Positions 11,020 through 37,820 of a DNA stretch of 49,804 nucleotides are shown here, piece by piece (position 1 is the first letter of the stretch; the number at the start of each line of letters is the position of its first letter). A program made the translations under genes and the position numbers. Under the pieces are notes generated by a model that was not told where the DNA came from, did not search any database, and saw only the letters and a list, made by a program, of their open reading frames with translations. The stretch lies in sequence record DRR723986_6629, one strand, 5' to 3'.

Positions 11020-11505
11020 ATGGAAAAAGACCCAATCAGCGTCGAGGCCCTCCTCGCCCGGATTACCGAACTCGAGGCTCGCGCAGCGATCCGGGACCTC
11101 GCGTCAGACTACTGTCACGGCTTCGACAAGCGTGATTTCGACCGCTTCCTCTCTATCTGGTGGGAAGACTGCGTCTGGGACATCGGCCCCCCATTCGGCC
11201 GCTTTGAGGGACACGATGGCATCCGTAGCGCCATCCACGACGTGCTGTGGCCCGTCTGGCAGGAATCCCATCACCTGACCACCAATCTCAGAATTGACTT
11301 TATTGACGCCGACAATGCCGAGTCCGTGTGCGACGTGGACTGCATCGGCACCCTGACTGACGACCCGGTGTGCCAGATGGTCGGCGCCACCTACCGGGAT
11401 CGCCTGCAAGCACGCGATGGCCAGTGGCGCATCCTGGAGCGCAAGGTCACGATCCACTATTTCAACCCGGTGACAGGCACGATCCTGGCACCACCACAAT
11501 CCTAA
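11020..11505 (+). CDS. NTF2/SnoaL-like lyase, LinA (HCH dehydrochlorinase)/BaiE-like
   Basis: RAAIRDL.SD, FDKR, SIWW, VLWP, H.TTNLR, RDG.W and YF.P..G...APP segments are colinear with LinA as I recall it; Y31, D36, H85 and R141 present. Confidence 0.85.
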   Translation: MEKDPISVEALLARITELEARAAIRDLASDYCHGFDKRDFDRFLSIWWEDCVWDIGPPFGRFEGHDGIRSAIHDVLWPVWQESHHLTTNLRIDFIDADNAESVCDVDCIGTLTDDPVCQMVGATYRDRLQARDGQWRILERKVTIHYFNPVTGTILAPPQS

Positions 11506-11566
11506 CCCTGAAAATTAACCGCAACGCTCGATAAATCAATAATTAAAGTACCCCCGGAGGTTACAC

Positions 11567-13828
11567 ATGAAAAAGACAAGCTTGAGCACCGCACTGGCTG
11601 TCGCCACCGCTTCTCTCGCTACAACCATGACCCCACTGGCTACCGCTCAATCGGAAGTCGGCGCGCTGGAAGAGATCGTGGTAACCGCACGTAAACGCAA
11701 GGAGGATCTGCAGGATGTCGGACTATCTGTCAGCGCTATGTCTGGCACTGAGATCGATCGCACGTTCGCCAGAGACATCAGGGACCTTGCCTTCATCTCG
11801 CCGAACCTGATTATCGACGATACCTCGCAGGGCCCGGGGGGCAATGCAGCCATGTATATCCGTGGCATCGGCGTCGCCGACGTAGAAAAGAACTTTGAAC
11901 CTGCAGTAGGCGTCACTATTGACGGGCTGTTCATCGGCGCCAACAGTGGCGCGATCCTCAGGAGCATCGACCTCGCCTCAGTGGAAGTATTGCGTGGCCC
12001 ACAGGGCACGCTGTTCGGTCGTAACACTATCGGGGGCACGATCAATGTCGAAAGAAGCAGGCCTACCGGAGAACTGGGCGGCAAAGTCCGTGCTGGTTAC
12101 GGCGATTATGATCATTACTGGCTTGACGGTATCCTGAACTTCGGCATTACCGATGATCTGGCAGTAAAGCTCAGCGCTGCAAAAAACAATCAGCGCGATG
12201 GCTACTTCAAGAACGTCAGTAACGGCAATGATGATGGTGCTGTAGATTACGAGTCCTACGGCATCAACTTGCTGTGGAATGCAACCGACACCCTGGAGTT
12301 TGAGTACACCTACCAGGATGAGGAAACGGTTCAGGATACGCCCCCACTGGTCAGCATGTCGCAGCCGGGCAGCAGCCTCAGCTGTGACGTCTACAACCTG
12401 TGCGCCAAATCTTTGACTACACCAAGTTCAGGCGACCGCTACAAAGTAACCACCCTGAGTTTTGAACCCACTACAGCGTCTCTGTCCCCGCCCCCTACCA
12501 GCATTGTGACATCGGCAATCGCTGATTTGATCCCAAACAATGATGACGCCACCTTTGATGCCGAAACCCATATCTTTGAAACACGCTGGGAAATCAGCGA
12601 CAGCCTGTCGCTGAACTACATCTACGGCACCTATGAAACACAGGAAACAGTCGTCACCAACTTCTCATCAGAGCCGATCATGCTGTTTGGCACGGATCGT
12701 CCTGCAGAATATGAGCAATTGAGTCATGAACTGAGATTTACCTATGATGCCGGCGGCCCACTAAAGCTTGTTGCGGGCGCCTACTACTGGGAGTCTGAGT
12801 ACGACATCCGCCTGCGCAGCTGGATTACGTTTGCCGTGCCCGATACCGTGTTGGACATCCCGCAAACGACGCACCAGGAAACAGATTCCCAGGCGATCTT
12901 TTTCGAAGGCGATTACGCGCTGACGGATGCCCTGACCCTGACCCTGGGGGGCCGCTACACCGAAGACGAGAAGCTGTCTGAGCAGCGCGGAAACCTGTCG
13001 ACAGGACCAAACGACCCCAAGGCGGATTGGTCCGAGTTCACACCTAAAGTGGGTATGCGCTATCGGCTGAATGACGATGCCATGGTCTATGCCACTTATG
13101 CCAAGGGTTATCGCAGCGGCGGCTTCAATGGCCGGGTTGATTCGCAACCCAGCGCCCGGATCCCTTATGACCCGGAGACTGTTGATAACTACGAACTCGG
13201 CTTCAAAACCGAATGGATGGACCAGCGAGTACGATTGAACGGTGCCGTGTTCTACATGGACTACCAGGACAAGCAGGAAGAAATTGGACTTGTGTCTGAT
13301 GGTGCCACCGGCCAGCGGATTTCGGTTTTCAACGCGGCTGATGCAACCATGCAGGGCGTGGAGCTTGAGTTACAGGCGATCGTCACCGAAGGTCTGAGCA
13401 TGCGAGCAAACCTTGGCTATCTTGATTCAGAGTACGACGAGTTTACCTATGACTCTGGCTTTGGCATCGTTGATAACAGCGGATTGGAATTCCGCCGGGC
13501 ACCCGAGTTTACGGGATCCGTAGATGCGACCTACGAGTGGCAGATGGGTGGTGGCGATGCCTGGGTAAGGGGTTCATACCGCTTCCTGGGTGAGCACTTT
13601 ATCGAACAGGCAAACCGTCCGGAGCTGTCGAATGATGATCAGCACCTGGTCGACATGTCGGTGAACTACGCTACCAATGGCCTCACCTTCAGCGTTTTCG
13701 GACGTAACCTGACTGAGGAAGACGGTTGGGCGCACGGCCTGTTCGTCTCCGGTCTGTTTACCTACGCATCGGCACGCGCGCCTCGTACCTGGGGTGTTGA
13801 AGTCACCTATGATTTTGGAGCCGAGTGA
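11567..13828 (+). CDS. TonB-dependent receptor 1
   Basis: Signal peptide, TonB box LEEIVVTARKR, plug motif VEVLRGPQGTLFGRNTIGG, GYRSGGFN, C-terminal PRTWGVEVTYDF; GGAGG RBS. Confidence 0.95.
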   Translation: MKKTSLSTALAVATASLATTMTPLATAQSEVGALEEIVVTARKRKEDLQDVGLSVSAMSGTEIDRTFARDIRDLAFISPNLIIDDTSQGPGGNAAMYIRGIGVADVEKNFEPAVGVTIDGLFIGANSGAILRSIDLASVEVLRGPQGTLFGRNTIGGTINVERSRPTGELGGKVRAGYGDYDHYWLDGILNFGITDDLAVKLSAAKNNQRDGYFKNVSNGNDDGAVDYESYGINLLWNATDTLEFEYTYQDEETVQDTPPLVSMSQPGSSLSCDVYNLCAKSLTTPSSGDRYKVTTLSFEPTTASLSPPPTSIVTSAIADLIPNNDDATFDAETHIFETRWEISDSLSLNYIYGTYETQETVVTNFSSEPIMLFGTDRPAEYEQLSHELRFTYDAGGPLKLVAGAYYWESEYDIRLRSWITFAVPDTVLDIPQTTHQETDSQAIFFEGDYALTDALTLTLGGRYTEDEKLSEQRGNLSTGPNDPKADWSEFTPKVGMRYRLNDDAMVYATYAKGYRSGGFNGRVDSQPSARIPYDPETVDNYELGFKTEWMDQRVRLNGAVFYMDYQDKQEEIGLVSDGATGQRISVFNAADATMQGVELELQAIVTEGLSMRANLGYLDSEYDEFTYDSGFGIVDNSGLEFRRAPEFTGSVDATYEWQMGGGDAWVRGSYRFLGEHFIEQANRPELSNDDQHLVDMSVNYATNGLTFSVFGRNLTEEDGWAHGLFVSGLFTYASARAPRTWGVEVTYDFGAE

Positions 13829-13911: not shown

Positions 13912-14487
13912 GTGAGCAAAGATCAACTAGCGCAATTACTAGACAAACAGGCCATATCAGAGGTTGTCATAACCTACGCCAGGGCCATAGATAGAATGGA
14001 TGAGCCGCTCCTACGCAGCGTGTTCCATCCCCACTCAACCCACAACCATTTCTACCAGGGCCCCTCTTCCGACCCCGGTCGGGCAGCAACCGAGAGCGAC
14101 CCGGGTGATTTCGTACGTTTTGCTTTCCAGGTGCTATCGGGCCATGTGCGCACACACCACCAGCTGGGCAACATCCTTGTTGAATTAGAAAGCGACACCA
14201 TTGCGCGGGTGGAGACTTACTTCACCGCACACCATCGCCAGCGTGCACTCGGCGATCCCCTGGCAGCCGATAACGCATTTGAAACCGAGATGGACTTCTT
14301 TGTCGGCGGACGCTATCTCGATCGCTTCGAGCTGGTTGCGGGTGAGTGGAAAATCGCACACCGTACCGGCATGACCGACTGGATGCGCATCGATGCACCG
14401 AGTTCCTTCGGCACTGCCGGCATTGATCAGGACACCGTGGGCAAACGCACGCCCGACGACTTCCTATACAAACTGAGTAGCATCTGA
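13912..14487 (+). CDS. NTF2/SnoaL-like family protein
   Basis: LLDKQAI..V..TYARAIDR, THHQLGN and GGRYLDRF...GEWKIAHR motifs; GAGG RBS with GTG start. Confidence 0.88.
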   Translation: MSKDQLAQLLDKQAISEVVITYARAIDRMDEPLLRSVFHPHSTHNHFYQGPSSDPGRAATESDPGDFVRFAFQVLSGHVRTHHQLGNILVELESDTIARVETYFTAHHRQRALGDPLAADNAFETEMDFFVGGRYLDRFELVAGEWKIAHRTGMTDWMRIDAPSSFGTAGIDQDTVGKRTPDDFLYKLSSI

Positions 14488-14521: not shown

Positions 14522-15358
14522 ATGGGAGACAGACTCGCAAACAAGGTCGCAGTGATCACCGGCGGTGCCAGTGGTATCGGCGCAGAAACCGCAGAAAAAT
14601 TTGTGCAACATGGCGCAAAGGTAGTTCTGGGCGACATTCAGGATGGTCCCGGCGAAGCCTTTGCCGCAAAGCTAGGCGACGGCGCTCGCTTTCGTCACTG
14701 CGACGTGACCAAAGAGTCGGACGTCGAGGCGCTGGTCAATACCGCCATCGAGGAGTTCGGCCAGATCGACATCATGTTCAATAACGCGGGCATCGTCGGT
14801 GCCATCGGCCCTCTGGATTCAACGCCCGCGGAAGAATGGAAGTTCACCCTGGACATTCTGCTCAACGGCGTGTTCTACGGCATGAAACACGCATCAAAGC
14901 ACATGAAAAAGGCCGGCTCCGGTTCGATTATCAGCATGTCCAGTGTCGCCGGGGTCACCGGTGGACTGGGGCCGCACGCCTATGCTGCAGCCAAGCACGC
15001 GGTGGTGGGCCTGACCCGCAATCTGGCGGCTGAAGTAGGCGCCTACGGGGTACGCGTGAACTGCATCGCACCCTACAGTGTGGCAACACCAATGGTGGCC
15101 CAGGCCTATCTCAGCGACCACACCGACGTTGAGGGCACCCTGAAAATGCTGACCGATGAGTCACCGTTGCGCGGCCGCCCCGGGCTCGCCGATGACGTGG
15201 CCAATGCCGTTCTTTGGTTGGCCAGTGACGAGTCTGGCTACACCAGCGGTCATACCCTGACTATCGATGCGGGCATCACTACCGGCTCGGTAGCCGGCCC
15301 CCCACGCTTCTCCGAGCATGTGCCCATGCAGCGTGAGGCTGGCAAGACCGGCATGTAA
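14522..15358 (+). CDS. Classical SDR oxidoreductase, secoisolariciresinol/xanthoxin dehydrogenase-like
   Basis: TGGASGIG, NNAG, catalytic YAAAK within GLGPHAYAAAKHAVVGLT, RVNCIAPYSVATPM. Confidence 0.9.
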   Translation: MGDRLANKVAVITGGASGIGAETAEKFVQHGAKVVLGDIQDGPGEAFAAKLGDGARFRHCDVTKESDVEALVNTAIEEFGQIDIMFNNAGIVGAIGPLDSTPAEEWKFTLDILLNGVFYGMKHASKHMKKAGSGSIISMSSVAGVTGGLGPHAYAAAKHAVVGLTRNLAAEVGAYGVRVNCIAPYSVATPMVAQAYLSDHTDVEGTLKMLTDESPLRGRPGLADDVANAVLWLASDESGYTSGHTLTIDAGITTGSVAGPPRFSEHVPMQREAGKTGM

Positions 15359-15400: not shown

Positions 15401-15838
15401 ATGGGCCAGGATATAGACGAGCAGGCGATCCTGCAGTTGATGGTTGATTACTGCGACAGTGTCGATCGCGGCGATCTTGATGCCTTCGCGGGACTGTTTG
15501 CCGCGGGCGCATGGGGTATTGCCGGTGATCTCGCCCACGGAAGTGAGGCGGTAAGAGCCGTACTCGACAATGTGACGCTTTATGACGGGATACCAAACAC
15601 CCGCCACCTGATGTCCAATGTGCTGATCACAGTAGAGTCGGATGGGATAACGGCCAACGCAAGCAGTTGCATCACGGTCATGCAGTGCATCCCTGATGAC
15701 TTCCCACTGCAGGCAATTTTCATCGGCACCTATCACGACCGCCTGCGCAAGCGCGACAATGAGTGGTTTTTCGAAGAGCGTCTTATTGTGCCTAACCTGG
15801 TCGGCGATATGTCACGTCATCGCGGAGACATGGCCTAG
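15401..15838 (+). CDS. NTF2/SnoaL-like family protein
   Basis: DYCDSVDRGD, YDGIPNTRHLMSN and GTYHDR....EWFFEER motifs. Confidence 0.85.
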   Translation: MGQDIDEQAILQLMVDYCDSVDRGDLDAFAGLFAAGAWGIAGDLAHGSEAVRAVLDNVTLYDGIPNTRHLMSNVLITVESDGITANASSCITVMQCIPDDFPLQAIFIGTYHDRLRKRDNEWFFEERLIVPNLVGDMSRHRGDMA

Positions 15839-15929: not shown

Positions 15930-17558
15930 CTAACCTGCCAGGCGCGAGAATTCCAACTCCGGGTAACCCTCGTTGGCTGATTCGTCCAACCTGTCGTAGT
16001 ACACGTTGGCACCGCCAAAGTAGATCAGCACGCGTGGTCGCTTGGTCTCAAGGTTTGCTCCCATCATCCAGGAATTCACCTTGTCGCCCTCCGCCATCAG
16101 GGTCGCGTTGTGCACTTCCGCCACGTGCGCGGTCCACTCGGCCTCGGCTTCCGGTTTCGGCGTGCAGACGTCGTAACCTTCGCGCTCCATGGTACTGATG
16201 CAGTTGGCGATCCACATCGCATTCTGCTCGATGGAGGTGGGCAGGTTGGCGAATGGCGCCTGCGGTCCGGTAATGATGAACATGTTGGGGAAGTCCGCCA
16301 CGCAGACGCCCATGATGGAGCTGGAGGTCTCGCGCCACTTCTCAGCCAGGCTCTGGCCACTGACACCACGAATCGGGAAGGCTTCCAGGGCACCAGTGTA
16401 GGCACTGAAGCCGGTCGCCAGCACAATGATGTCGAAGTCGTAGCTGTTCTCCGTGGTCCGGACACCGGTCTCGGTGATTTCGACGATCGGCTCCTTGTCC
16501 TTGATATCGATCAGGTGCACATCGTCGCGATCGAAACACTCGAGATAGCCGTGGTCCAGCGGCGGACGCTTGGCAAACAGCGGGTAGTCACCCAGCTTGG
16601 GCACCAGGATATCCGCGACTTCCGGATTCTTGATGCGCTCGCGCATCTTCCTGAGGATGAACTCCGAGGCCATATCGTTCGCTTCCTGGCTGCCCAGCAA
16701 GTCCTCGAAGGTCTCGAATACCCAGCGGAAGCTGCCGGTCCACTTCTCCTCGAAGATGCGCTCGCGCTCCTCCGGGGGTGTGTCCACGGCCATGCGGCCC
16801 TCAGCGGTGTCAAAGGCCATTCCAAACATGTGGTTGCGGCACTTGGCGACAATCTCGTCGTAATTTTCCTTGATTTCCTTTTCCCATTCCTCGGTCATCG
16901 GCGCCTGCATTGCCGGCAGGATGAAGTTCGGTGTGCGATGGAATACGGTGACGCTCTCGGCCTTTCCGCACATGGCGGGAACCATCTGCACGGTGGTGGC
17001 GCCGGCGCCGATGATCCCGATACGCTTACCCTCCCACTCAAGCCCTTCAGGCCAGCGGGAGGAGTGGAACAACGGACCCTTGAAGGTATCCATGCCCTTG
17101 ATTTTCGGGATGACCGGCTCGGAGATCATCCCCATGCCGCTGATAAAGTACTTACAGGTGAAGGTTTCCCCCTCACCGGTGGTGACCAGCCACTGACCGC
17201 TGTCCTTCTGGTAATCGGCGCTGACGATCTCGGTGTTGAGCTGGATGTCACGCCACATGTCGCACTTGTCGACCACGAAACGCATGTAATCCTGGGTCTC
17301 TTTCCAGTCCGGGTAACGCCGGGTCCACTTCCACTCCTGCAGCAATTCCTTGGAGAAGGTCAGGCAGTAGTAATAGCTCTCGCTATCCGTCATGGCGCCC
17401 GGGTAACGGTTCCAGGTCCAGGTACCGCCGACGTCGCTCGCCTTGTCGAACACCCTGATGGATTGGCCCGCCTCGCGGAGATAGTGGATCAATGCTATGC
17501 CGGCAAAGCCGGCGCCGATGACGATGGTATCGAAGTCTGGTTTTTGCTGAGACGCCAT
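15930..17558 (-). CDS. Type I Baeyer-Villiger monooxygenase 2
   Basis: GAGFAG, GGTWTWNRYPGA, fingerprint FKGPLFHSSRWP, GAGATT, KRP, ATGF. Confidence 0.95.
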   Translation of the reverse strand: MASQQKPDFDTIVIGAGFAGIALIHYLREAGQSIRVFDKASDVGGTWTWNRYPGAMTDSESYYYCLTFSKELLQEWKWTRRYPDWKETQDYMRFVVDKCDMWRDIQLNTEIVSADYQKDSGQWLVTTGEGETFTCKYFISGMGMISEPVIPKIKGMDTFKGPLFHSSRWPEGLEWEGKRIGIIGAGATTVQMVPAMCGKAESVTVFHRTPNFILPAMQAPMTEEWEKEIKENYDEIVAKCRNHMFGMAFDTAEGRMAVDTPPEERERIFEEKWTGSFRWVFETFEDLLGSQEANDMASEFILRKMRERIKNPEVADILVPKLGDYPLFAKRPPLDHGYLECFDRDDVHLIDIKDKEPIVEITETGVRTTENSYDFDIIVLATGFSAYTGALEAFPIRGVSGQSLAEKWRETSSSIMGVCVADFPNMFIITGPQAPFANLPTSIEQNAMWIANCISTMEREGYDVCTPKPEAEAEWTAHVAEVHNATLMAEGDKVNSWMMGANLETKRPRVLIYFGGANVYYDRLDESANEGYPELEFSRLAG

Positions 17559-18998: not shown

Positions 18999-19051
18999 TT
19001 GACTTGCGGGCCCCGCATCTTATACTTGCTAGACGCAAACAAGCAAGTTTC
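18999..19051. promoter_or_regulatory. Divergent promoter region: TTGACT-N16-TATACT overlapped by operator A, ACTTGCT-N11-AGCAAGT
   Basis: Perfect 7-bp inverted repeat at 19024-19048; near-identical copy at 10903-10927. Confidence 0.8.
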
Positions 19052-25598: not shown

Positions 25599-25627
25599 TT
25601 GAATTTAATTCAAATCTAACCTAACAT
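25599..25627 (+). promoter_or_regulatory. Operator B (TTGAAT-N3-ATTCAA) overlapping the -35 of promoter TTGAAT-N17-TAACAT
   Basis: Palindrome TTGAATTTAATTCAA at 25599-25613; -10 TAACAT at 25622-25627; second copy at 32395-32409. Confidence 0.75.
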
Positions 25628-30541: not shown

Positions 30542-30542
30542 T

Positions 30543-30947: not shown

Positions 30948-30949
30948 CC

Positions 30950-32366: not shown

Positions 32367-32409
32367 TTGACAAAAACCAGTGAGACGTCCAAAGTTGAAT
32401 AAGATTCAA
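32367..32409 (+). promoter_or_regulatory. Promoter (TTGACA-N17-CAAAGT) with operator B, TTGAAT-AAG-ATTCAA, over the start-site region
   Basis: TTGACA at 32367-32372; palindrome at 32395-32409 with the same arms as 25599-25613. Confidence 0.75.
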
Positions 32410-32453
32410 ATTCACCAAAACACCAATAATCAGCACCACGAGGGAGTATAAAA

Positions 32454-34922
32454 ATGAAGCCATTCCGGCATACCCTGCGGTACCTCAACTGGCTCAACAT
32501 CAAGGCAGCCCTGCTGCTGGGCCTGACACCCGCACTCGCGATCAATGCGCTGCCCGCCGGCGCACAACAGCTGGAAGAGGTACTGGTTACCGCAACCCGG
32601 CGCGCTGAGACCGATATCCAGCGCACACCGGTCGCGGTTACCCCGGTCAACGAAGCCCAGATCGATCGGATCATCCCCCGCGATCTCGGGGACGTGCTGA
32701 CCTATGCTCCCAACGTGATCGACGGTAAGCAGCCCGGCTTCAACGCGGCCAACTTCGCAATCCGCGGCGTCGGCCAGAATGGCATCATCCTGTACTTCGA
32801 AAACCAGGTCGGGGTGACCGTGGATGATTTTGTTATCCCGCATATCCAGACTGCCAATATCGAGATGCTGGACATCCAGAGCGTGGAAATCCTGCGCGGC
32901 CCCCAGGGCACGCTGTTCGGCAAGAACACAACGGGTGGCGTGATCAACGTCAAGACCAACCGCCCGGAGCTGCAGGAAAACAGCCTGGAGTTGCAGGGGC
33001 AGGTGGCAGAGTTCGGTACCTATGAAGCCAAGGGAGTGGGCAACTTCGCTTTCGGTGATAATTTCGCCATTCGCCTGGCTGCGATGTACCGCGAATCCGA
33101 CGGCTTCTATGAGAACGGTGCCGAATACGGCCCGGTAGCCGACTTCGGTGTGAACTACCCGCTGGTTGGCGCAACCGGCAAAGGAGACGGCTCGGACGTG
33201 GGCGGCGATGACCTGCTCTCCGGCCGGTTCAAGCTGCGCTGGCAGGCGACGGATGCCCTGGACATCAACTTTGCCTATGAGATGGTAAGAGACAGTGGCG
33301 ATTCGCCCCCATCGGTCAACGGCACTCCCGCCAATAGTGGCTACCTCTGGAATGCCCTGGGCTTCACCGCTGAATCCGGCAATCCGCTCGAGAACGCAGC
33401 CCTGACCAACCGCGACGACGCTCTCATGGGCATGAAGAAAAAAGGCCATGAGATCGACGTGGACGGCTACTACCTGAATGTGGACTGGGAACTGAGCGAT
33501 AGCTATAACCTGGTCGGCTTTGCCGGCTACCGCGAGACTGATTCCTGGCTGCCCAGCACCTACACCGGTGAAGTTGGCCCGGTGTCACTGTTCGATGCCA
33601 ACCGCCAGGATGAGCGCGAGACCACCCAATTGGAACTGCGCCTCAACTCAAACCTGGGCGGAAGCTTCAACTGGACCGGTGGCGTCTTCTACCAGAAGGA
33701 TGAAACCGTATTCACCGTCGCCCAGCTGCTGGGCTTCGTGGATATGACCCTGGATGCCGGCGCCCTGTTCGGCAACCCACTGTTCTTCAATGAAAACCCG
33801 CAGGTACTGTCGAATGCCCAGGATATGGAATCCTGGGCCGTTTATGCCGACGGCACCTGGGACCTTACCGATCGCTGGTCAATTGGCGGCGGTATCCGCT
33901 ACACCAATGAAGAGAAGGAGTGGACCGGGCGCAACCAGGTCTTCACCCAGGCCCTGACCGGCGGCTTCGACCCGAGTTTCACCTGGCGCGAGCTGGGCGA
34001 ACCTCTGGCGGCGGCAAATTTCTCGGCCTATCCCAGCGGAGTAGTGAAGGATAAAGAGGACTGGAGCGAGCCAACCTGGCGCCTGACAACCAGCTACCAG
34101 ATGAGTGACGACCTGTTCACCTACTTCACCTATTCCCGCGGCTTCAAGAGCGGCGGTTACAACGACCAGACCGGTACCGGCGGCAACCCGATTGAGCCTA
34201 TCCAGGCCCGTCCGGTTGACCCGGAGACAGCAGACTCGTTCGAGATCGGCCTGCGTTCGGAGATGCTGGATAACACACTGCGTCTTAACCTGACCGGCTT
34301 CTACGTGGTCTACGACGATTCCCAGCAGCAGCTGCTGGCTGAAATCGAAGCGGACCGTGATGGCGACGGCGTCAATGAGAGCACCTTCCAGGAAACCCGC
34401 TTCTTCAACGCGGCGGAGATCAACGTATTTGGTGCCGAGCTTGAGGCGACCTGGCTGGCGACAGACCATTTCACCATTCAGGGCAGCATCGGCGTACTGG
34501 ACAGTGAATTTGATTCCTTCCAGGCCGACACCAACTTTGACGGCACCATCGATACCGACCTCAGCAAGAACGATGTCGCGCGAGCGCCGGAACTCACCTG
34601 GAACGTTGACTTCCTCTATGACCATGGCTTCATGGGCGGCGAATTGGATTATGTGCTGAACGTCAACTACGTCGACGAGGCGGTCTATGCCTACACCGCA
34701 GTACCCGATACCAAGGACGGCCTGACTGATGATCGCACCCTGGTCAATGCCTCGATCACCTATCGCTCTGATGGCGGCTGGTGGGTGCGCGCTTTCGGCA
34801 AGAACCTGACCGATGAGGAATACCGGATCGGTGAGCTGCCGGTGGCAAACCTGTGGGTCATGTCATTCTACGGCGCACCTCGCATGTTCGGCGCCGAAGT
34901 GGGCATGGACTTCGACTGGTAA
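32454..34922 (+). CDS. TonB-dependent receptor 2
   Basis: Signal peptide, LEEVLVTATRR, VEILRGPQGTLFGKNTTGG, GFKSGGYN, C-terminal PRMFGAEVGMDFDW. Confidence 0.95.
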   Translation: MKPFRHTLRYLNWLNIKAALLLGLTPALAINALPAGAQQLEEVLVTATRRAETDIQRTPVAVTPVNEAQIDRIIPRDLGDVLTYAPNVIDGKQPGFNAANFAIRGVGQNGIILYFENQVGVTVDDFVIPHIQTANIEMLDIQSVEILRGPQGTLFGKNTTGGVINVKTNRPELQENSLELQGQVAEFGTYEAKGVGNFAFGDNFAIRLAAMYRESDGFYENGAEYGPVADFGVNYPLVGATGKGDGSDVGGDDLLSGRFKLRWQATDALDINFAYEMVRDSGDSPPSVNGTPANSGYLWNALGFTAESGNPLENAALTNRDDALMGMKKKGHEIDVDGYYLNVDWELSDSYNLVGFAGYRETDSWLPSTYTGEVGPVSLFDANRQDERETTQLELRLNSNLGGSFNWTGGVFYQKDETVFTVAQLLGFVDMTLDAGALFGNPLFFNENPQVLSNAQDMESWAVYADGTWDLTDRWSIGGGIRYTNEEKEWTGRNQVFTQALTGGFDPSFTWRELGEPLAAANFSAYPSGVVKDKEDWSEPTWRLTTSYQMSDDLFTYFTYSRGFKSGGYNDQTGTGGNPIEPIQARPVDPETADSFEIGLRSEMLDNTLRLNLTGFYVVYDDSQQQLLAEIEADRDGDGVNESTFQETRFFNAAEINVFGAELEATWLATDHFTIQGSIGVLDSEFDSFQADTNFDGTIDTDLSKNDVARAPELTWNVDFLYDHGFMGGELDYVLNVNYVDEAVYAYTAVPDTKDGLTDDRTLVNASITYRSDGGWWVRAFGKNLTDEEYRIGELPVANLWVMSFYGAPRMFGAEVGMDFDW

Positions 34923-34964
34923 GCTGCTCTATCGAACACCTTATGTCTTTGTACATAAACCCTG

Positions 34965-35034: not shown

Positions 35035-35955
35035 ATGGCGGAAATCATTCTTCACCATTTTGATATATCACCTTTCGCGGAGAAGATCCGTCTCGTTTTA
35101 GGTCTGAAGAAACTGAGTTGGCGGTCGGTAGATATCCCGCTGATTATGCCCAAGCCGGAGCTCACTGCGCTGACCGGCGGCTATCGCAAGACGCCGGTGA
35201 TGCAGATCGGAGCCGACATCTACTGCGATACACAGCGCATCGCTGAGGAATTGGAACAGCGCTTTCCCGAACCCACCCTGTTTCCAGGCAACAGCCGCGG
35301 GCTCTCCAGCGCCCTCAGCCAGTGGAGCGACATGGCATTTTTCCAACCGGGTGCCGGTTTGTCGATGGGCACCAATGCCGGCTTACCCGAGGATATCCTC
35401 CGGGACCGCCGGGCCTTCTTCAACTTCCTCGACTTCGACACCCTGCAGGAACAACTACCCCATCTTTACAGCCAGTTCCGCTGCCATCTGCAACTGGCAG
35501 ACGATATGCTCTCCGACGGCCGCGCATTCATACTTGGTGCGGCACCAGGGTGGGCGGATATCCTTGCCTACTTTCCCTTGTGGATGGGTCGGGGCAATAT
35601 CGCTGACGCGGTGCAGCTGGTGGAGGGTCTATCGGCACTTGCCGCATGGGAGACAAGAATGCTGTCGATCGGCCACGGCCAGGCAGTTGCCATGAGTTCG
35701 TCCGAGGCTATTGAAGTGGCTCGTAGCCATCGCAGTAGTGTAGGGCCTGTATGTGCTGCGGACGCCTGGCCCGCCGGTCTCGCGCCCGGCACGCCGGTCA
35801 CCGTTACACCGCAGGACTATGGCGCAGTCCCCGTCGCGGGACAGCTGCTGCGCCTGACGCATCGCGATATCGCGATTCAACGCAATGATCCACGCGCCGG
35901 TGACGTCGTGGTGCATTTCCCCAGATTGGGTTACAAGGTGGAGAAAACCGCATGA
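35035..35955 (+). CDS. Glutathione S-transferase family protein
   Basis: SPFAEKIRL, PKP.L.ALTGGYRKTPVMQIGADIYCDT and VHFPRLGY motifs. Confidence 0.9.
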   Translation: MAEIILHHFDISPFAEKIRLVLGLKKLSWRSVDIPLIMPKPELTALTGGYRKTPVMQIGADIYCDTQRIAEELEQRFPEPTLFPGNSRGLSSALSQWSDMAFFQPGAGLSMGTNAGLPEDILRDRRAFFNFLDFDTLQEQLPHLYSQFRCHLQLADDMLSDGRAFILGAAPGWADILAYFPLWMGRGNIADAVQLVEGLSALAAWETRMLSIGHGQAVAMSSSEAIEVARSHRSSVGPVCAADAWPAGLAPGTPVTVTPQDYGAVPVAGQLLRLTHRDIAIQRNDPRAGDVVVHFPRLGYKVEKTA

Positions 35956-37820
35956 GAGTAAGAATATATCGCGTTCTATTGAGTACCGCCTTGTGCGTGT
36001 TTGCACTCTCGAGTCCGGCTGCAGACACCGGGACCGCTGCCGCCGACGGTGAGCAACTGTATCTCGCACACTGCGCCCAGTGCCACGGTGGCAAGGTCGC
36101 CAAGGCGCCGCCGCTGAGCCTGTTGCAGATCATGTCTGGCAGCTCCATCCTCAGGGCAATGGAATCGGGCGTCATGCAGACCCATGCCGCCGCTATGAAC
36201 GGGAACGAGAAACGTGCCGTGGCGCGCTATCTCACCGGTATGGATCCGGACAATGCTTCAACCACCCTGCCCGCTCCGCGCTGTGAGGGCGACACCGCCC
36301 GCTTCGATTTCAAGCGTCCGCCAGCTACCGAAGGTTGGGGGGTAGGCCTTCACAATCAGCGCCACTTCGGCGCGAACATAACCGAGCTGACTGCGGAATC
36401 GCTGCCCCAACTTGAACTCAAGTGGGCTATCGCCTTTCCGGAAGCGATTCGGGCGCGCTCACAACCGGCGGTCGCCGGCGGCGCTGTCTACGTTGGCAGC
36501 CAGGACGGTACGGTCTACGCGCTGGACCGGGACACCGGCTGCATCCGCTGGGAGTTCTCTACGGTAGCGGAAGTCCGCACCGGCATCGTGGTCGCGCCCT
36601 GGGAGCCCAGCCAGCAGGCCAATCCCCTGCTCTACTTCGGTGACCTGGTAGGCAACGTGTATGCCGTCGATGCGGTAACCGGTGAACTGGCCTGGCGCGA
36701 CCGCCCCGATGACCATGCCAGCCTCACCCTGACGGCTGCGCCGGCGCTGTTTGAGGGCAAGCTGTACGTCCCGCTCTCGGCGCTGGAGGTTACCGCTGCC
36801 GCCGACCCGACCTATGCCTGCTGCACCTTCCGCGGCGGGGTGGCGGCCTATGACGCGCTCACCGGTGAACGCCTGTGGGTTGGTTACACCATAGACGAAG
36901 CGCCTCGCGTTGTCGGCCAGAACGCGGTCGGCACTGATCGCATTGCGCCATCGGGCGCGCCTGTCTGGAATACGCCGGCAATCGATGCGAAGCGCGGGCT
37001 CATGTACGTGGGCACCGGCGAGAATTACTCCTCACCGGCCAATGACACCAGCGACGCGATCATTGCCCTCAGCCTGGCTGACGGCAAGATCGCATGGCAC
37101 CGGCAAATGACCCCCGGCGACGCCTGGAACATGGGCTGCGAAACTGACGAACGCATCAACTGTCCGCCCGAGGACGGGCCGGATTACGATTTCGGTGCCG
37201 CCACCATCCTGGCGACCAATTCCGAGGGGCGCGACATCCTGTTAGCGGGACAGAAATCCGGCGCGGTATTCGGGCTGGATCCTGACCGCGACGGGGCAAT
37301 TGTCTGGCAGCAAAAACTGGGCCGGGGCGGTATCCAGGGCGGGGTGCATTTCGGCATGGCCGTTGACGGTGACACGCTGTACGTGCCGATGTCCGATTTC
37401 GACGGCGGTCCGCGCTGGCCCGGCGTCGCCAGACCAGGCATGTTTGCGCTGGATATCACCAGCGGCGAAACCCACTGGTACACTCCGGCCAGCGATGTCT
37501 GCGCCGGGCGCGAGTTCTGCCAGCCGGGCATCTCGGCGCCGGCGTCATCTCTCCCCGGAGGCGTGCTTGCCGGCGCGATGGATGGCCACCTGCGCGCCTA
37601 CGACGGCAAGACCGGCAAGGTCCTCTGGGATCTGGATACGGCAGTGGAATTCGATACGCTCGACGGCGGTCGCGCCCACGGCGGTTCCGTGGGCGGCGCC
37701 TCCGGCCCAGTGCTGAGCGGCGACATGCTGTTCATCAACTCAGGCTATGGGATCTACTTTCATATGCCCGGCAATGTACTGTTGGCATTCGGACCCCCGG
37801 ACCGCGCCACGAAGGACTGA
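35952..37820 (+). CDS. Quinohaemoprotein dehydrogenase (N-terminal cytochrome c plus PQQ beta-propeller; polyvinyl-alcohol dehydrogenase-like)
   Basis: Signal peptide, CAQCH haem motif, YACCTFRG, GPDYDFG, GQKSG, repeated A.D..TG...W propeller motifs, NSGYG...PGNVLLAF. Confidence 0.9.
   Translation: MRVRIYRVLLSTALCVFALSSPAADTGTAAADGEQLYLAHCAQCHGGKVAKAPPLSLLQIMSGSSILRAMESGVMQTHAAAMNGNEKRAVARYLTGMDPDNASTTLPAPRCEGDTARFDFKRPPATEGWGVGLHNQRHFGANITELTAESLPQLELKWAIAFPEAIRARSQPAVAGGAVYVGSQDGTVYALDRDTGCIRWEFSTVAEVRTGIVVAPWEPSQQANPLLYFGDLVGNVYAVDAVTGELAWRDRPDDHASLTLTAAPALFEGKLYVPLSALEVTAAADPTYACCTFRGGVAAYDALTGERLWVGYTIDEAPRVVGQNAVGTDRIAPSGAPVWNTPAIDAKRGLMYVGTGENYSSPANDTSDAIIALSLADGKIAWHRQMTPGDAWNMGCETDERINCPPEDGPDYDFGAATILATNSEGRDILLAGQKSGAVFGLDPDRDGAIVWQQKLGRGGIQGGVHFGMAVDGDTLYVPMSDFDGGPRWPGVARPGMFALDITSGETHWYTPASDVCAGREFCQPGISAPASSLPGGVLAGAMDGHLRAYDGKTGKVLWDLDTAVEFDTLDGGRAHGGSVGGASGPVLSGDMLFINSGYGIYFHMPGNVLLAFGPPDRATKD

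Follow-up and report, generated by a model that had tools for sequence, protein, structure and literature searches.

Gene content of the locus

The block of DNA at positions 11020..37820 of the 49,804-nt record DRR723986_6629 (the whole record is hereafter called the window) raises the question of whether its genes form a single catabolic system, and on what kind of compound such a system might act. When gene families were called through Pfam and NCBIfam profile searches, 25 adjacent genes were found in this ~27-kb block; a previous sequence-only reading had counted 24. Each family named in that reading was borne out at its position (the label of PQQ dehydrogenase in part), and its two blocks, A and B, each with its own TonB-dependent receptor (TBDR), TetR regulator, and operator pair, were all found, with the operators kept in relatives. 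Related loci (77) were fetched by using the luciferase-like (LLM) protein; among these, 57 had enough upstream DNA, 47 had long downstream flanks, and 41 had long flanks for both the Lva-like core and the block B core described below. With a probability of about one half, the best explanation overall is that the locus is a conserved catabolic island of the Halieaceae (OM60/NOR5 clade), composed of separable modules and governed by two TetR repressors. We infer all reaction assignments in the island from family and motif. The island is a novel combination of already known modules. A literature search found no gene-for-gene match to a described pathway, in keeping with the earlier statement that no known pathway has this combination; the core of block A, however, maps onto the lva operon.

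An Lva-like module in block A

The ACAD-fold enzyme of block A (17618..18913, minus strand) is of the ACAD10/11 (LvaC) type: it matched ACAD11 structures at 237-241 bits, compared with 153 bits for the best ordinary ACAD. Its Arg255, His263-Ala-Met-Arg266, and Asp384 aligned with R626, H634..R637, and D753 of ACAD11 (numbering of the ACAD11 paper, one position above the chain index in the alignment). Moreover, RLGGGRVHHAMR was kept in 51/51 ACAD orthologues, which were 80-93% identical. On the plus strand lie SDR2, a FabG-like reductase in the LvaD position (19070..19801, ORF opening at 19004, with the ATG at 19070 as the likely start; adh_short_C2, E 8e-58; 208 bits against the NCBIfam 3-oxoacyl-ACP reductase model, under its cutoff of 298), and an APH-family kinase of the LvaA or ACAD10/11 kinase-domain type (about 19791/19803..20819; APH, E 3.5e-43). 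The kinase matched structures 9o56 and 3dxp as well as the ACAD11 kinase domain in 8v3v (E 2.4e-36), and HGD[FY]HLDN was kept in all 53 of its 53 orthologues. The acyl-CoA ligase LIG1, in the LvaE position (20819..22432, plus strand; AMP-binding, E 2.6e-74), has a start that overlaps the stop codon of the kinase gene; it scored 600 bits against NF004837 (over the cutoff of 476) and 526 bits, below cutoff, against the MMPA-CoA ligase model.

According to published work, ACAD10/11 (LvaA/LvaC) pairs convert 4-hydroxyacyl-CoA to 2-enoyl-CoA via a phosphate ester, and in LvaA/LvaC and the Burkholderia pseudomallei orthologues this chemistry is carried out by separate proteins. As judged by family and motif, the kinase and the ACAD are such a split pair, with the kinase predicted to be a 4-hydroxyacyl-CoA kinase and the ACAD a 4-phosphoacyl-CoA eliminase. 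Together with the adjacent SDR2 and LIG1, they resemble the lva operon and are termed here the Lva-like module. The sequence-only reading had missed this pair and had block A feed beta-oxidation; a role of the kinase and ACAD as general beta-oxidation genes was ruled out by the ACAD10/11-type matches and the kept catalytic columns.

Other genes of block A

Block A opens with SnoaL1, a LinA-like protein of the NTF2 fold (11020..11505, plus strand; SnoaL_4, E 4e-25). SnoaL1 matched LinA structures 3s5c, 5kvb, and 3a76 over its full length (E 1e-30 to 4e-32; 3s5c, E 3.6e-32), its Asp36 and His85 occupy the columns of LinA Asp25 and His73, and GFDKR was kept in 7/7 orthologues; it is a probable eliminase or dehydratase. 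There follow, all on the plus strand, the outer-membrane receptor TBDR1 (11567..13828; plug and beta-barrel domains, signal peptide), which is 31% identical to TBDR2 of block B; SnoaL2 (13912..14487; NTF2 fold; SnoaL_4, E 3.8e-21), for which the NCBIfam search gave no match; SDR1 (14522..15358; adh_short_C2, E 4e-63), whose near NCBIfam matches include hydroxycyclohexanecarboxylate dehydrogenase models, below cutoffs; and SnoaL3 (15401..15838; NTF2 fold; SnoaL_4, E 4.6e-19; Ring_hydroxyl_B, weakly matched). At the other end of the block are an alpha/beta hydrolase (23084..23890, plus strand; Abhydrolase_1, E 9e-27) and LLM, a luciferase-like flavin monooxygenase or oxidoreductase (23908..24909, plus strand; Bac_luciferase, E 3e-54). 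The hydrolase is predicted to be an esterase or lactonase; its nearest NCBIfam models, all below cutoff, were BioH esterase and 3-oxoadipate enol-lactonase, GWSLGG was kept in 20/20 orthologues, and the gene was present in 56 of the 57 loci with enough upstream DNA. The best solved relatives of LLM are annotated as "alkanal monooxygenase alpha chain" and gave partial matches of 96-97 bits.

Downstream of the ACAD gene lies a type I Baeyer-Villiger monooxygenase (BVMO; 15930..17558, minus strand), which matched cyclohexanone monooxygenase 5m0z (E 1e-139) and, further, PAMO and steroid monooxygenase. Its FxGxxxHxxxWP stretch reads FKGPLFHSSRWP; among 25 orthologues the core was FHSSRWP in 19, FHS[CVA]RWP in 5, and MHSARWP in 1.

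Block B encodes predicted activation, hydration, and cleavage enzymes

The genes from SDR3 through TBDR2, all on the plus strand, together span 25658-34922. SDR3 (25658..26470; adh_short_C2, E 5e-63) is followed by SnoaL4 (26470..26886; NTF2 fold; SnoaL_4, E 1.7e-19), which is weakly like a Rieske beta subunit (Ring_hydroxyl_B, E 7e-6). SnoaL4 was found in 30 of the 47 loci with long downstream flanks, a count equal to that of the block B core, and also in loci without a Rieske gene (e.g. L047, L050, L053, and L073 in the synteny table). The acyl-CoA ligase LIG2 (26898..28454, ORF opening at 26841; AMP-binding, E 1.7e-78) is 30% identical to LIG1. Two hotdog subunits come next: MaoC1, of the FAS1_DH_region type (28451..28906; PF13452, E 4.5e-19), is probably a non-catalytic partner, and the HadB-like MaoC2 (28903..29337; NCBIfam HadB model, E 1.7e-6; no match in the Pfam search) is probably the catalytic hydratase subunit, with LWN[GA]HRIH kept in 34/34 orthologues. 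The hydratase-2 motif has its catalytic Asp at the place where MaoC2 has Asn, and this substitution was counted against the best explanation.

The thiolase-fold protein that follows (29357..30541; Thiolase_C_1, E 2e-64) is a retro-aldolase candidate with a Sal/SLP-type YDCF. Its structure matches were 4u4e (337 bits), Ltp2 (6ok1; 218 bits), and CtSal (9myr; 211 bits). It resembles the Sal/Ltp2-type retro-aldolases in having no nucleophilic Cys (Gly occupies that column) and in carrying a YDCF-type motif: its YDCF (residues 329-332) aligns with YDHF of Ltp2 and YDCY of Sal, and [LIV]YDCF was kept in 32/32 orthologues. According to published accounts, CtSal relies for catalysis on Tyr and Cys within YDCY, and a Gly in place of the nucleophile rules out thiolysis. 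A thiolase was ruled out by the Gly in the nucleophile column and the YDCF motif. Adjoining is a stand-alone DUF35 protein with a zinc ribbon and an OB fold (30543..30947; OB_ChsH2_C, E 1e-23; zf-ChsH2, E 2e-12), presumed to be the partner of the retro-aldolase candidate; its C4 ribbon, Cys-x2-Cys-x10-Cys-x2-Cys, was kept in each of the 8 variants of the motif listed for 23 aligned orthologues. These features support the view that block B encodes putative enzymes for CoA activation, for hydration, and for breaking a C-C bond, the last being the thiolase-fold protein. Because the active site is of the retro-aldolase type and not that of a thiolase, a carbonyl product is plausible. The previously proposed removal of a side chain to give a ketone thus agrees with the aldolase motif, DUF35, and the MaoC pair; that the side chain is "branched" was a guess.

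The last enzyme of the block is a Rieske non-haem iron oxygenase represented by its alpha subunit alone (30950..32308; Rieske and Ring_hydroxyl_A domains); it carries CSHRG, CPFHSW, and YESYHLHAVH, all conserved across 26 orthologues. Solved enzymes such as 3n0q, carnitine monooxygenase, and naphthalene dioxygenase matched its N-terminal half only (E about 1e-27); full-length relatives of 53-57% identity were found on alphaproteobacterial megaplasmids. No ferredoxin or reductase partner for it was found in the window. TBDR2 (32454..34922; plug and beta-barrel domains) completes the block.

Two further plus-strand genes lie downstream. One encodes a GST-like protein (35035..35955; GST_N_3, E 2e-16) in which only the N-terminal thioredoxin-like domain was recognised, and which directly follows the Rieske gene in L001, L006, L020, L027, L043, L048, L051, and L057. 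The other encodes a secreted protein in which an N-terminal cytochrome c domain is joined to a PQQ-like beta-propeller (35952..37820; PQQ_2, PQQ, and Cytochrome_CBB3), and which has a signal-peptide-like N-terminus and CAQCH. Its domains fit the earlier label of PQQ dehydrogenase, but the methanol/ethanol-family model gave only 116 bits, far below the cutoff of 480, over residues 129-393 of 622.

Two operator pairs and two predicted regulons

Operator A occurs at 10903..10927 (unstranded; ACTTGCT-N11-AGCATGT, one arm mismatch), 93 bp upstream of SnoaL1, and at 19024..19048 as an exact ACTTGCT-N11-AGCAAGT; the copies share 23/25 bases, spacer included. The second copy overlaps a promoter-like TTGACT-16-TATACT (18999..19026, plus strand; whole element, 18999..19048), a consensus match only, with 3 such sites in the region versus 6.2 expected. 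Operator B (both copies unstranded) is a perfect palindrome, TTGAATTTAATTCAA, at 25599..25613 between TetR2 and SDR3 (TTGAAT-N3-ATTCAA), and recurs as TTGAATAAGATTCAA at 32395..32409, 45 bp upstream of TBDR2, with 2 mismatches to the typed 15-mer and both arms intact. Within the window, chance controls were weak for both: operator A gave 3 matches versus a shuffle mean of 1.55 (24/100 shuffles reaching 3), and operator B, at up to 3 mismatches, gave 3 versus 0.56 (2/100 reaching 3).

In related loci, operator A was present at the ACAD/SDR junction in 43/50 and operator B at the TetR2/SDR3 junction in 31/34, with swapped-operator controls of 0/34 and 1/50. A site resembling operator A precedes the SnoaL1 orthologue of L059, and operator B lies 3' of the Rieske gene in 11/21 loci. 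Because they are conserved at matching junctions, both operator pairs are considered real; since related loci of Halieaceae share both the synteny and the operators, the arrangement is not due to chance. Judged on sequence, the two pairs define two regulons. Predicted regulon A comprises the operons SnoaL1-TBDR1-SnoaL2-SDR1-SnoaL3, ACAD-BVMO, and SDR2-kinase-LIG1-TetR1-hydrolase-LLM; predicted regulon B comprises TetR2, the SDR3-SnoaL4-LIG2-MaoC1-MaoC2-aldolase-DUF35-Rieske operon, and TBDR2. TetR1 (22437..23084, ORF from 22344, plus strand; TetR_N, E 1e-10), a repressor gene inside the SDR2 operon, is presumed from co-occurrence to encode the binder of operator A. The divergent TetR2 (24911..25531, ORF to 25594, minus strand; TetR_N and TetR_C_6; likely start, the ATG at 25531) is the predicted repressor of block B. 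That the BVMO here belongs to regulon A and not to regulon B was counted against the best explanation. An operator-B-type palindrome was found directly upstream of BVMO or hydrolase in L005, L038, L044, L050, and L066; at strict BVMO/hydrolase junctions, an operator-B site was present in only 1/6.

Conservation and modularity in relatives

Gene order recurs among the 77 loci. LLM was 73-85% identical in 75/77, and 56/77 were labelled Halieaceae or a Halieaceae genus; the block is conserved among Halieaceae of coastal seas. For each protein, key motifs were unchanged in nearly all orthologues (20-53 of them, or 7 in the case of SnoaL1), and the catalytic motifs of the island proteins appear to be under selection. 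The Lva-like core was found in 48/57 loci, while 30/47 had the block B core. Among the 41 loci informative for both, 21 had both cores, 12 the Lva-like core only, 7 block B only, and 1 neither. The blocks thus co-occur (21/41), and yet the Lva-like module and block B are separable; given 12/41 with A only and 7/41 with B only, the earlier notion of "one system" holds for this genome type and not for the whole family. Because related genomes are not independent samples, these co-occurrence counts overstate the support.

The BVMO tracked block B, being present in 17/28 loci with block B versus 2/13 without it, which is consistent with a scheme in which block B makes a ketone and the BVMO uses it. 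L048 (Haliea alexandrii LZ-16-2) has both cores and no BVMO within 10 kb. The earlier proposal had a ring opened via a lactone; sequence does not tell whether the ketone is cyclic or an open-chain methyl ketone, and the product of the BVMO may equally be an ester formed from an open-chain ketone.

Proposed pathway and candidate substrates

In the proposed scheme, a carboxylated hydrophobic compound would be imported and converted to a CoA ester by LIG2, the 2-enoyl-CoA would be hydrated by the MaoC pair, and C-C cleavage would yield acetyl- or propionyl-CoA and a ketone or aldehyde. No ACAD to make the 2-enoyl-CoA was found in block B; the scheme would therefore require that the acid be unsaturated from the start or that the Rieske enzyme act as a desaturase. 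Hydroxyl groups may be added or oxidised by the Rieske enzyme and SDR3. The BVMO (perhaps LLM too) would then convert the ketone to an ester or lactone, the alpha/beta hydrolase would open it, and LIG1 would re-activate the resulting acid. Finally, should a 4-oxo- or 4-hydroxyacyl-CoA block beta-oxidation, SDR2 would reduce it, the kinase would phosphorylate it, and the ACAD11/LvaC-type enzyme would yield a 2-enoyl-CoA, as in the lva pathway. The scheme leaves the four SnoaL_4 proteins, LLM, the GST-like protein, and the PQQ-like protein without a settled place.

The "alicyclic or terpenoid" substrate named earlier was a guess, the sole direct hints being an RPE65-family (carotenoid-cleavage-type) oxygenase in only 2/77 loci, adjoining BVMO in L066 and LLM in L045, and P450 genes in three (L045, L050, and L053). 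The L045 protein was nearest the 8'-apo-carotenoid 13,14-dioxygenase model (412 bits, under the cutoff of 675); the L066 copy scored equally for lignostilbene dioxygenase. Among the megaplasmid records carrying Rieske relatives, an algal phycosphere was the source of one and cyanobacterial aggregates that of another. As a first guess, the substrate may be an isoprenoid acid from phototrophs, of the apocarotenoid, retinoid, or phytol type. If so, hydration and retro-aldol cleavage of a 3-methyl-2-enoyl-CoA would release a methyl ketone, a natural substrate of BVMOs.

Gene content of the island

Between positions 11020 and 37820, 25 adjacent genes follow one another with hardly any unassigned DNA between them. 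The sequence-only reading had counted 24 genes here, and the gene families that it named were borne out. Its observation as a whole was confirmed, while its interpretation, in which block B removes a branched side chain to give a ketone and block A opens a ring through a lactone, was partly supported and is sharpened below. The G+C content of the window is ∼60%, and the neighbours of the island are genes for a DbpA helicase, a lipoyl synthase, a rhomboid protease and an NAD kinase, together with a DUF3450-ExbB-ExbB-ExbD-TonB-TPR set. These flanks resemble those of a marine gammaproteobacterium, in agreement with the related loci described below. Gene starts were refined from homologue alignments and neighbouring stop codons, several reading frames being open upstream of the likely start. 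Many stops and starts in the island overlap or abut, which fits an organization in operons. When compared with NCBIfam, no cluster gene scored above cutoff for a model of equivalog rank; the models that passed were of subfamily rank only, for LIG1 (600 vs. 476 bits), SDR1, and SDR3. The DUF3450-ExbB-ExbB-ExbD-TonB-TPR set lies 1.4 kb downstream of the island (39192–44272, minus strand) and could be the energizer of TBDR1 and TBDR2; a pattern search of the window found no operator A or operator B site near it.

Conservation and modular composition in related loci

Related loci were retrieved by using LLM as the query, which was chosen for its position at the junction of the two blocks. None of the 77 loci collected (denoted by L numbers) is identical to the window, and the identity of LLM was 73–85% in 75 loci, 66% in one, and 34% in one. 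The titles of 56 of the 77 loci name Halieaceae, Haliea, Halioglobus, Luminiphilus, or Congregibacter, and all but one (76/77) derive from MAGs or single-cell assemblies, the exception being Haliea alexandrii LZ-16-2 (L048). As judged from these LLM-retrieved loci, the island is conserved across genomes of Haliea, Halioglobus, Luminiphilus, and Congregibacter. The flanks taken were 10 kb, which in many loci falls short of the TBDR1 operon or of the GST-PQQ genes.

Comparison of the window proteins with these loci by tblastn resolved the island into five modules. M1 comprises SnoaL1-TBDR1-SnoaL2-SDR1-SnoaL3, and M2 is the BVMO gene. M3 consists of ACAD, divergent from SDR2-kinase-LIG1-TetR1 (refined starts at 19070, 19803, 20819, and 22437, respectively), and M4 of hydrolase (refined start at 23084) and LLM. 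In M5, TetR2 (refined start at 25531) is divergent from SDR3-SnoaL4-LIG2-MaoC1-MaoC2-aldolase-DUF35-Rieske, and either TBDR2 or GST-PQQ follows. With orthologues called at identities of at least 40% and coverage of at least 60%, the M3 core (ACAD, kinase, and LIG1) was found in 48 of the 57 loci with at least 6.3 kb upstream, and the M5 core (LIG2, both MaoC genes, aldolase, and DUF35) in 30 of the 47 with at least 7.5 kb downstream; the Rieske gene was present in 24 of these 30. When the 41 loci with both flanks long enough were compared, 21 had both cores, 12 had M3 only, 7 had M5 only, and 1 had neither, these being counts from related genomes and not of independent events. Two calls are soft: L060 is without a match for the kinase only, and L059 has M1 between LLM and TetR2, with M5 out of range. 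The BVMO gene was present in 17 of 28 loci with M5, compared with 2 of 13 without it, and in 7 of 8 loci without M3, compared with 12 of 33 with it.

Several loci carry further genes. In 18 Luminiphilus-type loci (L036 at 1525–3852, minus strand, and 17 others), a PQQ dehydrogenase of about 775 residues is encoded between SDR1 and ACAD; it scored 359 bits on the methanol/ethanol-family model, whose cutoff is 480, and FadB, an ordinary ACAD, and a GMC oxidoreductase are encoded downstream of LLM in these loci. A VOC/glyoxalase-fold protein of about 400 residues is encoded at L038 18154–19353, L047 14952–16160, L053 14953–16089, and L045 14753–15967. It follows DUF35 where the Rieske gene is absent (L038, L047, and L053), and the L045 copy, which occurs without block B and was the sole copy scanned, matched no NCBIfam model. 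Two loci without the Lva-like module (L023 at 2900–3979 and L073 at 5346–6425, both minus strand) encode EcKL/APH (ecdysteroid-kinase-like) kinases with an SDR alongside, and these kinases may provide another hydroxyl-phosphorylating step.

Two operator pairs and two regulons

Operators A and B were found by reading two divergent promoter regions and were then confirmed by pattern search. Operator A, ACTTGCT-N11-AGCAAGT, is located at 19024–19048, where it overlaps the -10 hexamer of a TTGACT-16-TATACT match; a second copy at 10903–10927, upstream of the LinA-like gene, shares 23 of 25 bases with the first, spacer included. Operator B, TTGAAT-N3-ATTCAA, is located between TetR2 and SDR3 (25599–25613) and again upstream of TBDR2 (32395–32409). 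An inverted-repeat search with a minimum length of 10 detected no operator in the promoter regions, and shuffling of the window was a weak control, as three matches were reached by 2 of 100 shuffles for operator B and by 24 of 100 for operator A. The decision that the operators are real was therefore based on recurrence in the related loci. Of 50 loci, 43 had operator A between ACAD and SDR2, and operator B was found at the TetR2|SDR3 junction in 31 of 34 and after the Rieske gene in 11 of 21; swapped-operator controls gave 0/34 and 1/50. The earlier assignment of a separate TBDR, TetR, and operator pair to each block was thus correct. Which TetR protein binds which operator we infer from position and co-occurrence. 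A general scan gave 3 promoter-like sites (6.2 expected) and 12 terminator-like sites (12.0 expected), and the only promoter-like site used here is the one overlapping operator A, as a consensus match.

Operator sites also occur in other settings. Palindromes of the operator B type are found immediately upstream of either the BVMO or the hydrolase gene in L005, L038, L044, L050, and L066; at strict BVMO|hydrolase junctions, operator B was found in only one of six. In three Halioglobus loci (L059, L058, and L074) a SnoaL1 orthologue lies between LLM and TetR2, and in L059 the whole SnoaL1-TBDR1-SnoaL2-SDR1-SnoaL3 operon occupies this place with an operator A site ahead of it; the receptor operon thus moves as a unit. 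In L048 (position 20893) and L051 (position 20859), a further site of the operator A type occurs at the limit of the retrieved sequence, 173 bp downstream of the PQQ-like gene, and regulon A in these genomes may reach to genes past the island. An imperfect palindrome (GTCTTTGTACA / TGTACATAAAC) at 34945–34960 of the window, between TBDR2 and the GST gene, resembles neither operator.

A kinase-ACAD module predicted to act on 4-oxo and 4-hydroxy acyl-CoA

The island ACAD matched ACAD11 structures with 237–241 bits (E 3e-70) and the mycobacterial homologue 4hr3 with 251 bits, compared with 153 bits for the best ordinary ACAD. According to the ACAD10/11 literature, the ACAD domain of this type is recognizable by a catalytic Asp (D753 of mouse ACAD11) where Glu is usual, by an HCMR motif (H634 and R637), and by an upstream Arg (R626). 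Asp384 of the island protein (VDGPSEVH) falls in the same column as the Asp of the 8v3u stretch ADGPDEVH, and VDGP[ST]EVH is kept in 51/51 orthologues. Moreover, R255, H263, and R266 in RLGGGRVHHAMR align with RLGPGRIHHCMR, and this stretch of the island protein is unchanged in 51/51 orthologues; the motif reads HAMR instead of HCMR, with Ala in the Cys column as in 4hr3. With identities of 80–93%, ACAD surpasses all other island genes in conservation. The kinase gene, 890 bp from the ACAD gene, has its start overlapped by the SDR gene and its stop overlapped by the ligase gene. Its product matched the ACAD11 kinase domain (8v3v) over residues 32–314 with an E value of 2.4e-36, and the stand-alone bacterial proteins 9o56 and 3dxp matched better. 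In the kinase sequence HGD203FHLDN208, kept in 53/53 orthologues, the Asp and Asn may correspond, by their five-residue spacing, to the catalytic D220 and N225 of ACAD11.

In the literature, ACAD10/11 and the separate bacterial LvaA and LvaC are described as phosphorylating 4-hydroxyacyl-CoA and then eliminating the phosphate to yield 2-enoyl-CoA. Because ACAD, kinase, SDR, and ligase together form a set like LvaD, LvaA, LvaE, and LvaC, we read M3 as a 4-oxo/4-hydroxyacyl-CoA module, and on these alignments we put the probability that M3 would act on such CoA esters at about 0.85. The sequence-only reading had named the kinase and ACAD families correctly and had overlooked that they form an ACAD10/11 (LvaA/LvaC) pair.

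Like the Pseudomonas putida lva operon and mammalian ACAD10/ACAD11, the island has a kinase and an ACAD-fold enzyme with the Arg, His-x-Met-Arg, and Asp specific to ACAD10/11; in the mammalian proteins the two are fused, whereas in the island they are separate. As in the lva operon, an SDR and an acyl-CoA ligase share the operon, both matching only at family level, and the predicted chemistry would be the same, from 4-oxoacyl-CoA through 4-hydroxyacyl-CoA and 4-phosphoacyl-CoA to 2-enoyl-CoA. Unlike the lva genes, the island ACAD is divergently transcribed with the BVMO gene behind it, a TetR protein and a 25-bp operator provide the control, and the operon also holds hydrolase and LLM; in addition, no LvaB-like small gene was noticed in the island, a comparison made without the LvaB sequence as query. 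In P. putida, LvaA is the kinase, LvaC the ACAD-fold eliminase, LvaD the reductase, and LvaE the ligase, and these are grouped with LvaB under the lva regulator.

A thiolase-fold aldolase candidate with presumed DUF35 and hotdog partners

Among solved structures, the aldolase candidate (29357–30541, refined start at 29357) matched 4u4e, an uncharacterized 'thiolase', with 337 bits, Ltp2 (6ok1) with 218, and CtSal (9myr) with 211. The nucleophilic Cys in AACASG of the thiolase 6esq aligns with Gly in the GAGGGTT of the candidate, as it does in Ltp2. With Gly at the nucleophile column, the protein does not qualify as a true SCP2-type thiolase; the Cys of the HDCF type is present. It carries YDCF at residues 329–332, which is kept in 32/32 orthologues. 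The Sal paper reports YDHF in Ltp2, YDCY in CtSal, and YDCF in TbSLP; it shows that CtSal uses this Tyr and Cys as its catalytic pair and contends that thiolysis is ruled out where Gly takes the nucleophile position. At the column of Ltp2 Tyr344 and Sal Gln352, the candidate has His (SHSHPG), as do thiolases and 4u4e.

The next gene (30543–30947, refined start at 30543) encodes a stand-alone DUF35 protein (zf-ChsH2 and OB_ChsH2_C) with a canonical four-Cys ribbon, and two hotdog genes lie upstream of the aldolase candidate. Of their products, MaoC1 is of the FAS1_DH type and probably non-catalytic, and MaoC2 is weakly HadB-like. The hydratase-2 motif carries a catalytic Asp; MaoC2 has Asn at this position, and the Asn is unchanged in 34/34 orthologues. 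This combination makes it probable, though less so than the assignment of M3, that M5 carries out hydration and retro-aldol cleavage of a CoA ester.

The likeness to Shy-Sal (Comamonas and Pseudomonas) and ChsH1-ChsH2-Ltp2 (Actinobacteria) extends to a thiolase fold without the nucleophilic Cys, a Y-D-[CH]-[FY] motif, and a presumed DUF35 zinc-ribbon/OB partner beside the aldolase candidate; the MaoC-type hydratase is in two subunits, as in ChsH1-ChsH2. Unlike those systems, the island has DUF35 as a separate gene rather than fused to a hydratase subunit, its aldolase candidate has the uncharacterized 4u4e as nearest solved relative and His at the Tyr344/Gln352 column, and it has neither a steroid ring-degradation context nor an ACAD ahead of the hydratase.

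Oxygenases and associated proteins

The island BVMO is of type I, matching 5m0z over residues 1–534 with an E value of 1e-139, and is closest to cyclohexanone and phenylacetone monooxygenases. The type I fingerprint is FxGxxxHxxxW[PD], and FKGPLFHSSRWP was seen in the island protein. Type I BVMOs act together with esterases or lactonases in cyclohexanone, methyl-ketone, and keto-fatty-acid pathways, where a ketone is converted to an ester and then to an alcohol and an acid. Like these routes, the island groups an SDR, a type I BVMO, and an alpha/beta hydrolase; unlike them, it distributes these genes over two operons and links them to a 4-hydroxyacyl-CoA module. A second type I BVMO (6138–7727 of the window, minus strand), 39% identical to that of the island, adjoins lipoyl synthase outside both regulons. 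For LLM, comparison with solved relatives gave no usable functional hint.

SnoaL1 is a true relative of LinA (gamma-HCH dehydrochlorinase), whose dyad is Asp25-His73: the match is full-length (E 3.6e-32), and the dyad columns hold Asp36 and His85, which suggests an elimination or a dehydration as its reaction. No other lin-type genes were seen. The four SnoaL_4 proteins of the island share pairwise identities of 23–29%. A fifth SnoaL_4 protein (49229–49678, plus strand; E 1.9e-22), preceded by a glyoxalase-fold gene at 48807–49223, is unrelated in sequence to these four.

The Rieske alpha protein (refined start at 30950) has all metal ligands, in CSHRG, CPFHSW, and YESYHLHAVH. Lacking a true beta subunit, it belongs with the alpha3, monooxygenase-like group of Rieske non-haem iron oxygenases. 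Matches to solved enzymes are confined to its N-terminal half and are best with 3n0q and the carnitine monooxygenase CntA, both alpha-only enzymes. No dedicated ferredoxin or reductase was found near the gene among the surveyed ORFs of the window. SnoaL4 was considered as a beta subunit and rejected as a firm assignment, since it is present in Rieske-less loci and its match to beta subunits is weak. The PQQ-like protein behind block B, previously read as a PQQ dehydrogenase, is secreted and carries a cytochrome c domain at its N terminus; the PQQ-like propeller is present, but the methanol/ethanol dehydrogenase model covers residues 129–393 of 622 and scores 116 bits, far below its cutoff of 480.

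Full-length relatives of the Rieske protein, with 53–57% identity, are encoded on megaplasmids of Niveispirillum, Novosphingobium, Croceicoccus, and Sphingobium. In Sphingobium sp. RAC03 and Croceicoccus marinus, the neighbours are genes for a TBDR, a PQQ beta-propeller, an OB-fold (DUF35) protein, a thiolase-like protein, SDRs, a hydratase, and TetR, with an NTF2-family gene in addition in RAC03. Niveispirillum cyanobacteriorum shares fewer of them (TBDR, SDR, two thiolase-family genes, a CoA transferase, and an AMP-binding protein), and its record shows no PQQ, OB-fold, or TetR gene among the Rieske neighbours. These neighbourhoods indicate that a relative of block B exists in Alphaproteobacteria. 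Unlike the island, the megaplasmid clusters have a CoA transferase instead of or beside the ligase, a crotonase-type rather than a MaoC-type hydratase, and added VOC and ABM proteins. No BVMO or kinase/ACAD pair was found within the stretches examined, and the records describe no function for these clusters.

One pathway or several, and candidate substrates

The sequence-only reading had taken the two blocks to belong together, and they do co-occur: 21 of 41 loci have the two cores side by side in a fixed order, which supports a single pathway. Against this, 19 of the 41 loci have one core only, the window BVMO belongs to regulon A, the repressors are separate, and only one of six strict BVMO|hydrolase junctions has an operator. 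The window could instead hold two or more independent pathways side by side, namely an Lva-like operon (ACAD, SDR2, kinase, LIG1, TetR1, and perhaps hydrolase and LLM) and block B for some other CoA-activated compound. The Lva-like operon would then act on free 4-oxo or 4-hydroxy acids and gamma-lactones, for which lipid-peroxidation products, oxylipins, or hydroxy fatty acids shortened by beta-oxidation could be the sources. Such independence is consistent with the separate operators and their lack of cross-occurrence (0/34 and 1/50 in the swapped controls), with the Lva-like core occurring without block B in 12 of 41 loci and the reverse in 7, and with the Luminiphilus-type loci, which surround the core with a full-length PQQ dehydrogenase, FadB, an ordinary ACAD, and a GMC oxidoreductase; in addition, the literature presents kinase/ACAD chemistry as a general way in for 4-hydroxy acids. 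However, besides the adjacency and kept order of the cores, hydrolase and LLM remain with block B where the Lva-like genes are missing (for example in L038, L047, L050, L053, L066, and L073), the BVMO gene tracks block B and not the Lva-like core, and sites of the operator B type stand ahead of the BVMO or hydrolase gene in five loci. We therefore regard independent pathways as possible but doubtful.

Two known types of pathway could also account for the island. In a steroid or bile-acid side-chain pathway, LIG2, the MaoC pair, the aldolase candidate, and DUF35 would act like Shy/Sal or ChsH1-ChsH2-Ltp2, the SDRs and SnoaL_4 proteins would serve as hydroxysteroid dehydrogenases and dehydratases, and the BVMO would be a steroid monooxygenase. 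The active-site design that the aldolase candidate has in common with Ltp2 and CtSal, the steroid-pathway counterparts of DUF35 and the MaoC genes, the match of the BVMO to the steroid monooxygenase 4ap3 (E 6e-113), and that of LIG2 to the steroid-24-oyl-CoA synthetase model (262 bits, cutoff 750) point in this direction. Yet 4u4e scores well above the steroid enzymes for the aldolase candidate, the BVMO is nearer to cyclohexanone and phenylacetone monooxygenases, and the Rieske protein has a Ring_hydroxyl_A domain with carnitine/stachydrine- and naphthalene-type matches and no KshA-type protein among them; moreover, no KshA-type, KstD, Hsa/Tes, or HIP-degradation genes occur among the surveyed ORFs of the window or the related loci, and a steroid role seems highly improbable. 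The bile-salt side-chain cluster of Sphingobium Chol11 was likewise rejected as a match and serves as a loose analogy only, its Rieske protein being KshA-like and an aldolase or thiolase being absent according to its description. The other type is an arylalkanoate or phenylpropanoid pathway following the logic of the upper-pathway ipf genes for ibuprofen in Sphingomonadaceae, in which a CoA ester is formed, the ring is oxygenated by a Rieske enzyme, and a thiolase-like protein with DUF35 removes the side chain as an acyl-CoA. The ipf genes comprise the CoA ligase ipfF, the Rieske alpha gene ipfA, the thiolase-like ipfD, and the DUF35 gene ipfE, and the same four kinds of gene stand together in the island. 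The thiolase encoded by ipfDE is reported to yield propionyl-CoA. An aromatic route would also fit the VOC/glyoxalase-fold protein behind DUF35 in three Rieske-less loci (and in L045), the score of 235 bits of the L066 RPE65 protein for lignostilbene dioxygenase, and the weak likeness of the hydrolase to meta-cleavage-product hydrolases. Unlike the ipf system, however, the island adds the MaoC pair, the BVMO, and the Lva-like module, the last two of which serve no purpose in an aromatic route, and a true beta subunit, ferredoxin, reductase, dihydrodiol dehydrogenase, and meta-cleavage lower pathway are all missing from the surveyed ORFs of the window. The ibuprofen plasmid MPO218 was not in the best 25 of 974 plasmid records for the Rieske protein (identities of 34–57%), which is probably no close relative of IpfA; ipf orthology was therefore dropped and ipf retained as an analogy of logic, and we consider an arylalkanoate pathway improbable.

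An isoprenoid acid, on thin evidence, is our first guess at the substrate, because it allows a scheme with a role for every core enzyme. By established chemistry, hydration and retro-aldol cleavage of a 3-methyl-2-enoyl-CoA would give acetyl-CoA and a methyl ketone, which the BVMO and an esterase would then remove, and isoprenoids shortened from the other end would leave 4-oxoacyl-CoA at their methyl-ketone ends. Other possible substrates are oxylipin-type or hydroxy fatty acids, steroids, and arylalkanoates. RPE65-family oxygenases are encoded in two loci without the kinase/ACAD module: one adjoins the BVMO gene in L066 (5405–6874, minus strand; E 5.5e-124) and one adjoins LLM in L045 (11394–12710, minus strand; E 1.2e-120). 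The L045 protein is nearest to the 8'-apo-carotenoid 13,14-dioxygenase model (412 bits, cutoff 675), while lignostilbene and apocarotenoid enzyme models score alike for that of L066. As they occur in only 2 of 77 loci, these oxygenases were rejected as general neighbours and retained as a hint. Upstream in L066 are a second LLM, a ligase, and a true thiolase, and P450 genes are present in L045, L050, and L053.

More specifically, Halieaceae might use the island on pigment-derived isoprenoid acids (apocarotenoids, retinoid-like, or phytol-derived) by an undescribed repeating route, a proposal that we offer tentatively and think unlikely as it stands. In such a route, CoA activation and hydration would be followed by Sal-type retro-aldol cleavage of the 3-methyl-2-enoyl-CoA to a methyl ketone, which Baeyer-Villiger oxidation and ester hydrolysis would clear, and an Lva/ACAD11-type kinase-eliminase pair would clear 4-oxo/4-hydroxy acyl-CoA remnants such as levulinyl-type ends.

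Significance of the island

Judged by sequence likeness, each module of the island has a known relative, in lva and ACAD10/11, Shy-Sal and ChsH-Ltp2, the BVMO-esterase routes, and, loosely, ipf. The earlier statement that no described pathway has this combination of genes held, none having been found in the open-access literature searched; a keyword look-up in two Halieaceae and bloom-genomics papers likewise found no description of the cluster. The island is a TetR-controlled, receptor-linked catabolic island of known modules in an undescribed combination, and no new kind of mechanism has been shown.

In the island, the 4-hydroxyacyl-CoA kinase/eliminase chemistry that was explained in mammals only recently would become tractable in a bacterial setting. 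The aldolase candidate bears the Tyr/Cys design outside steroid metabolism, which would widen the known scope of this enzyme type. In addition, operators A and B are ready-made and well-defined tools for inducer discovery. If the proposal of pigment-derived acids is true, the split bacterial ACAD10/11 pair would gain a natural role in marine pigment turnover. Coastal waters commonly harbour Halieaceae (OM60/NOR5), which are abundant in coastal phytoplankton blooms, and little is known of what they consume apart from polysaccharides; the island would mark a route of carbon turnover in blooms if an algal lipid or pigment product is its substrate. Found family-wide in an abundant marine clade and provided with clean regulatory handles, the island is likely a new setting for two recently explained enzyme types.
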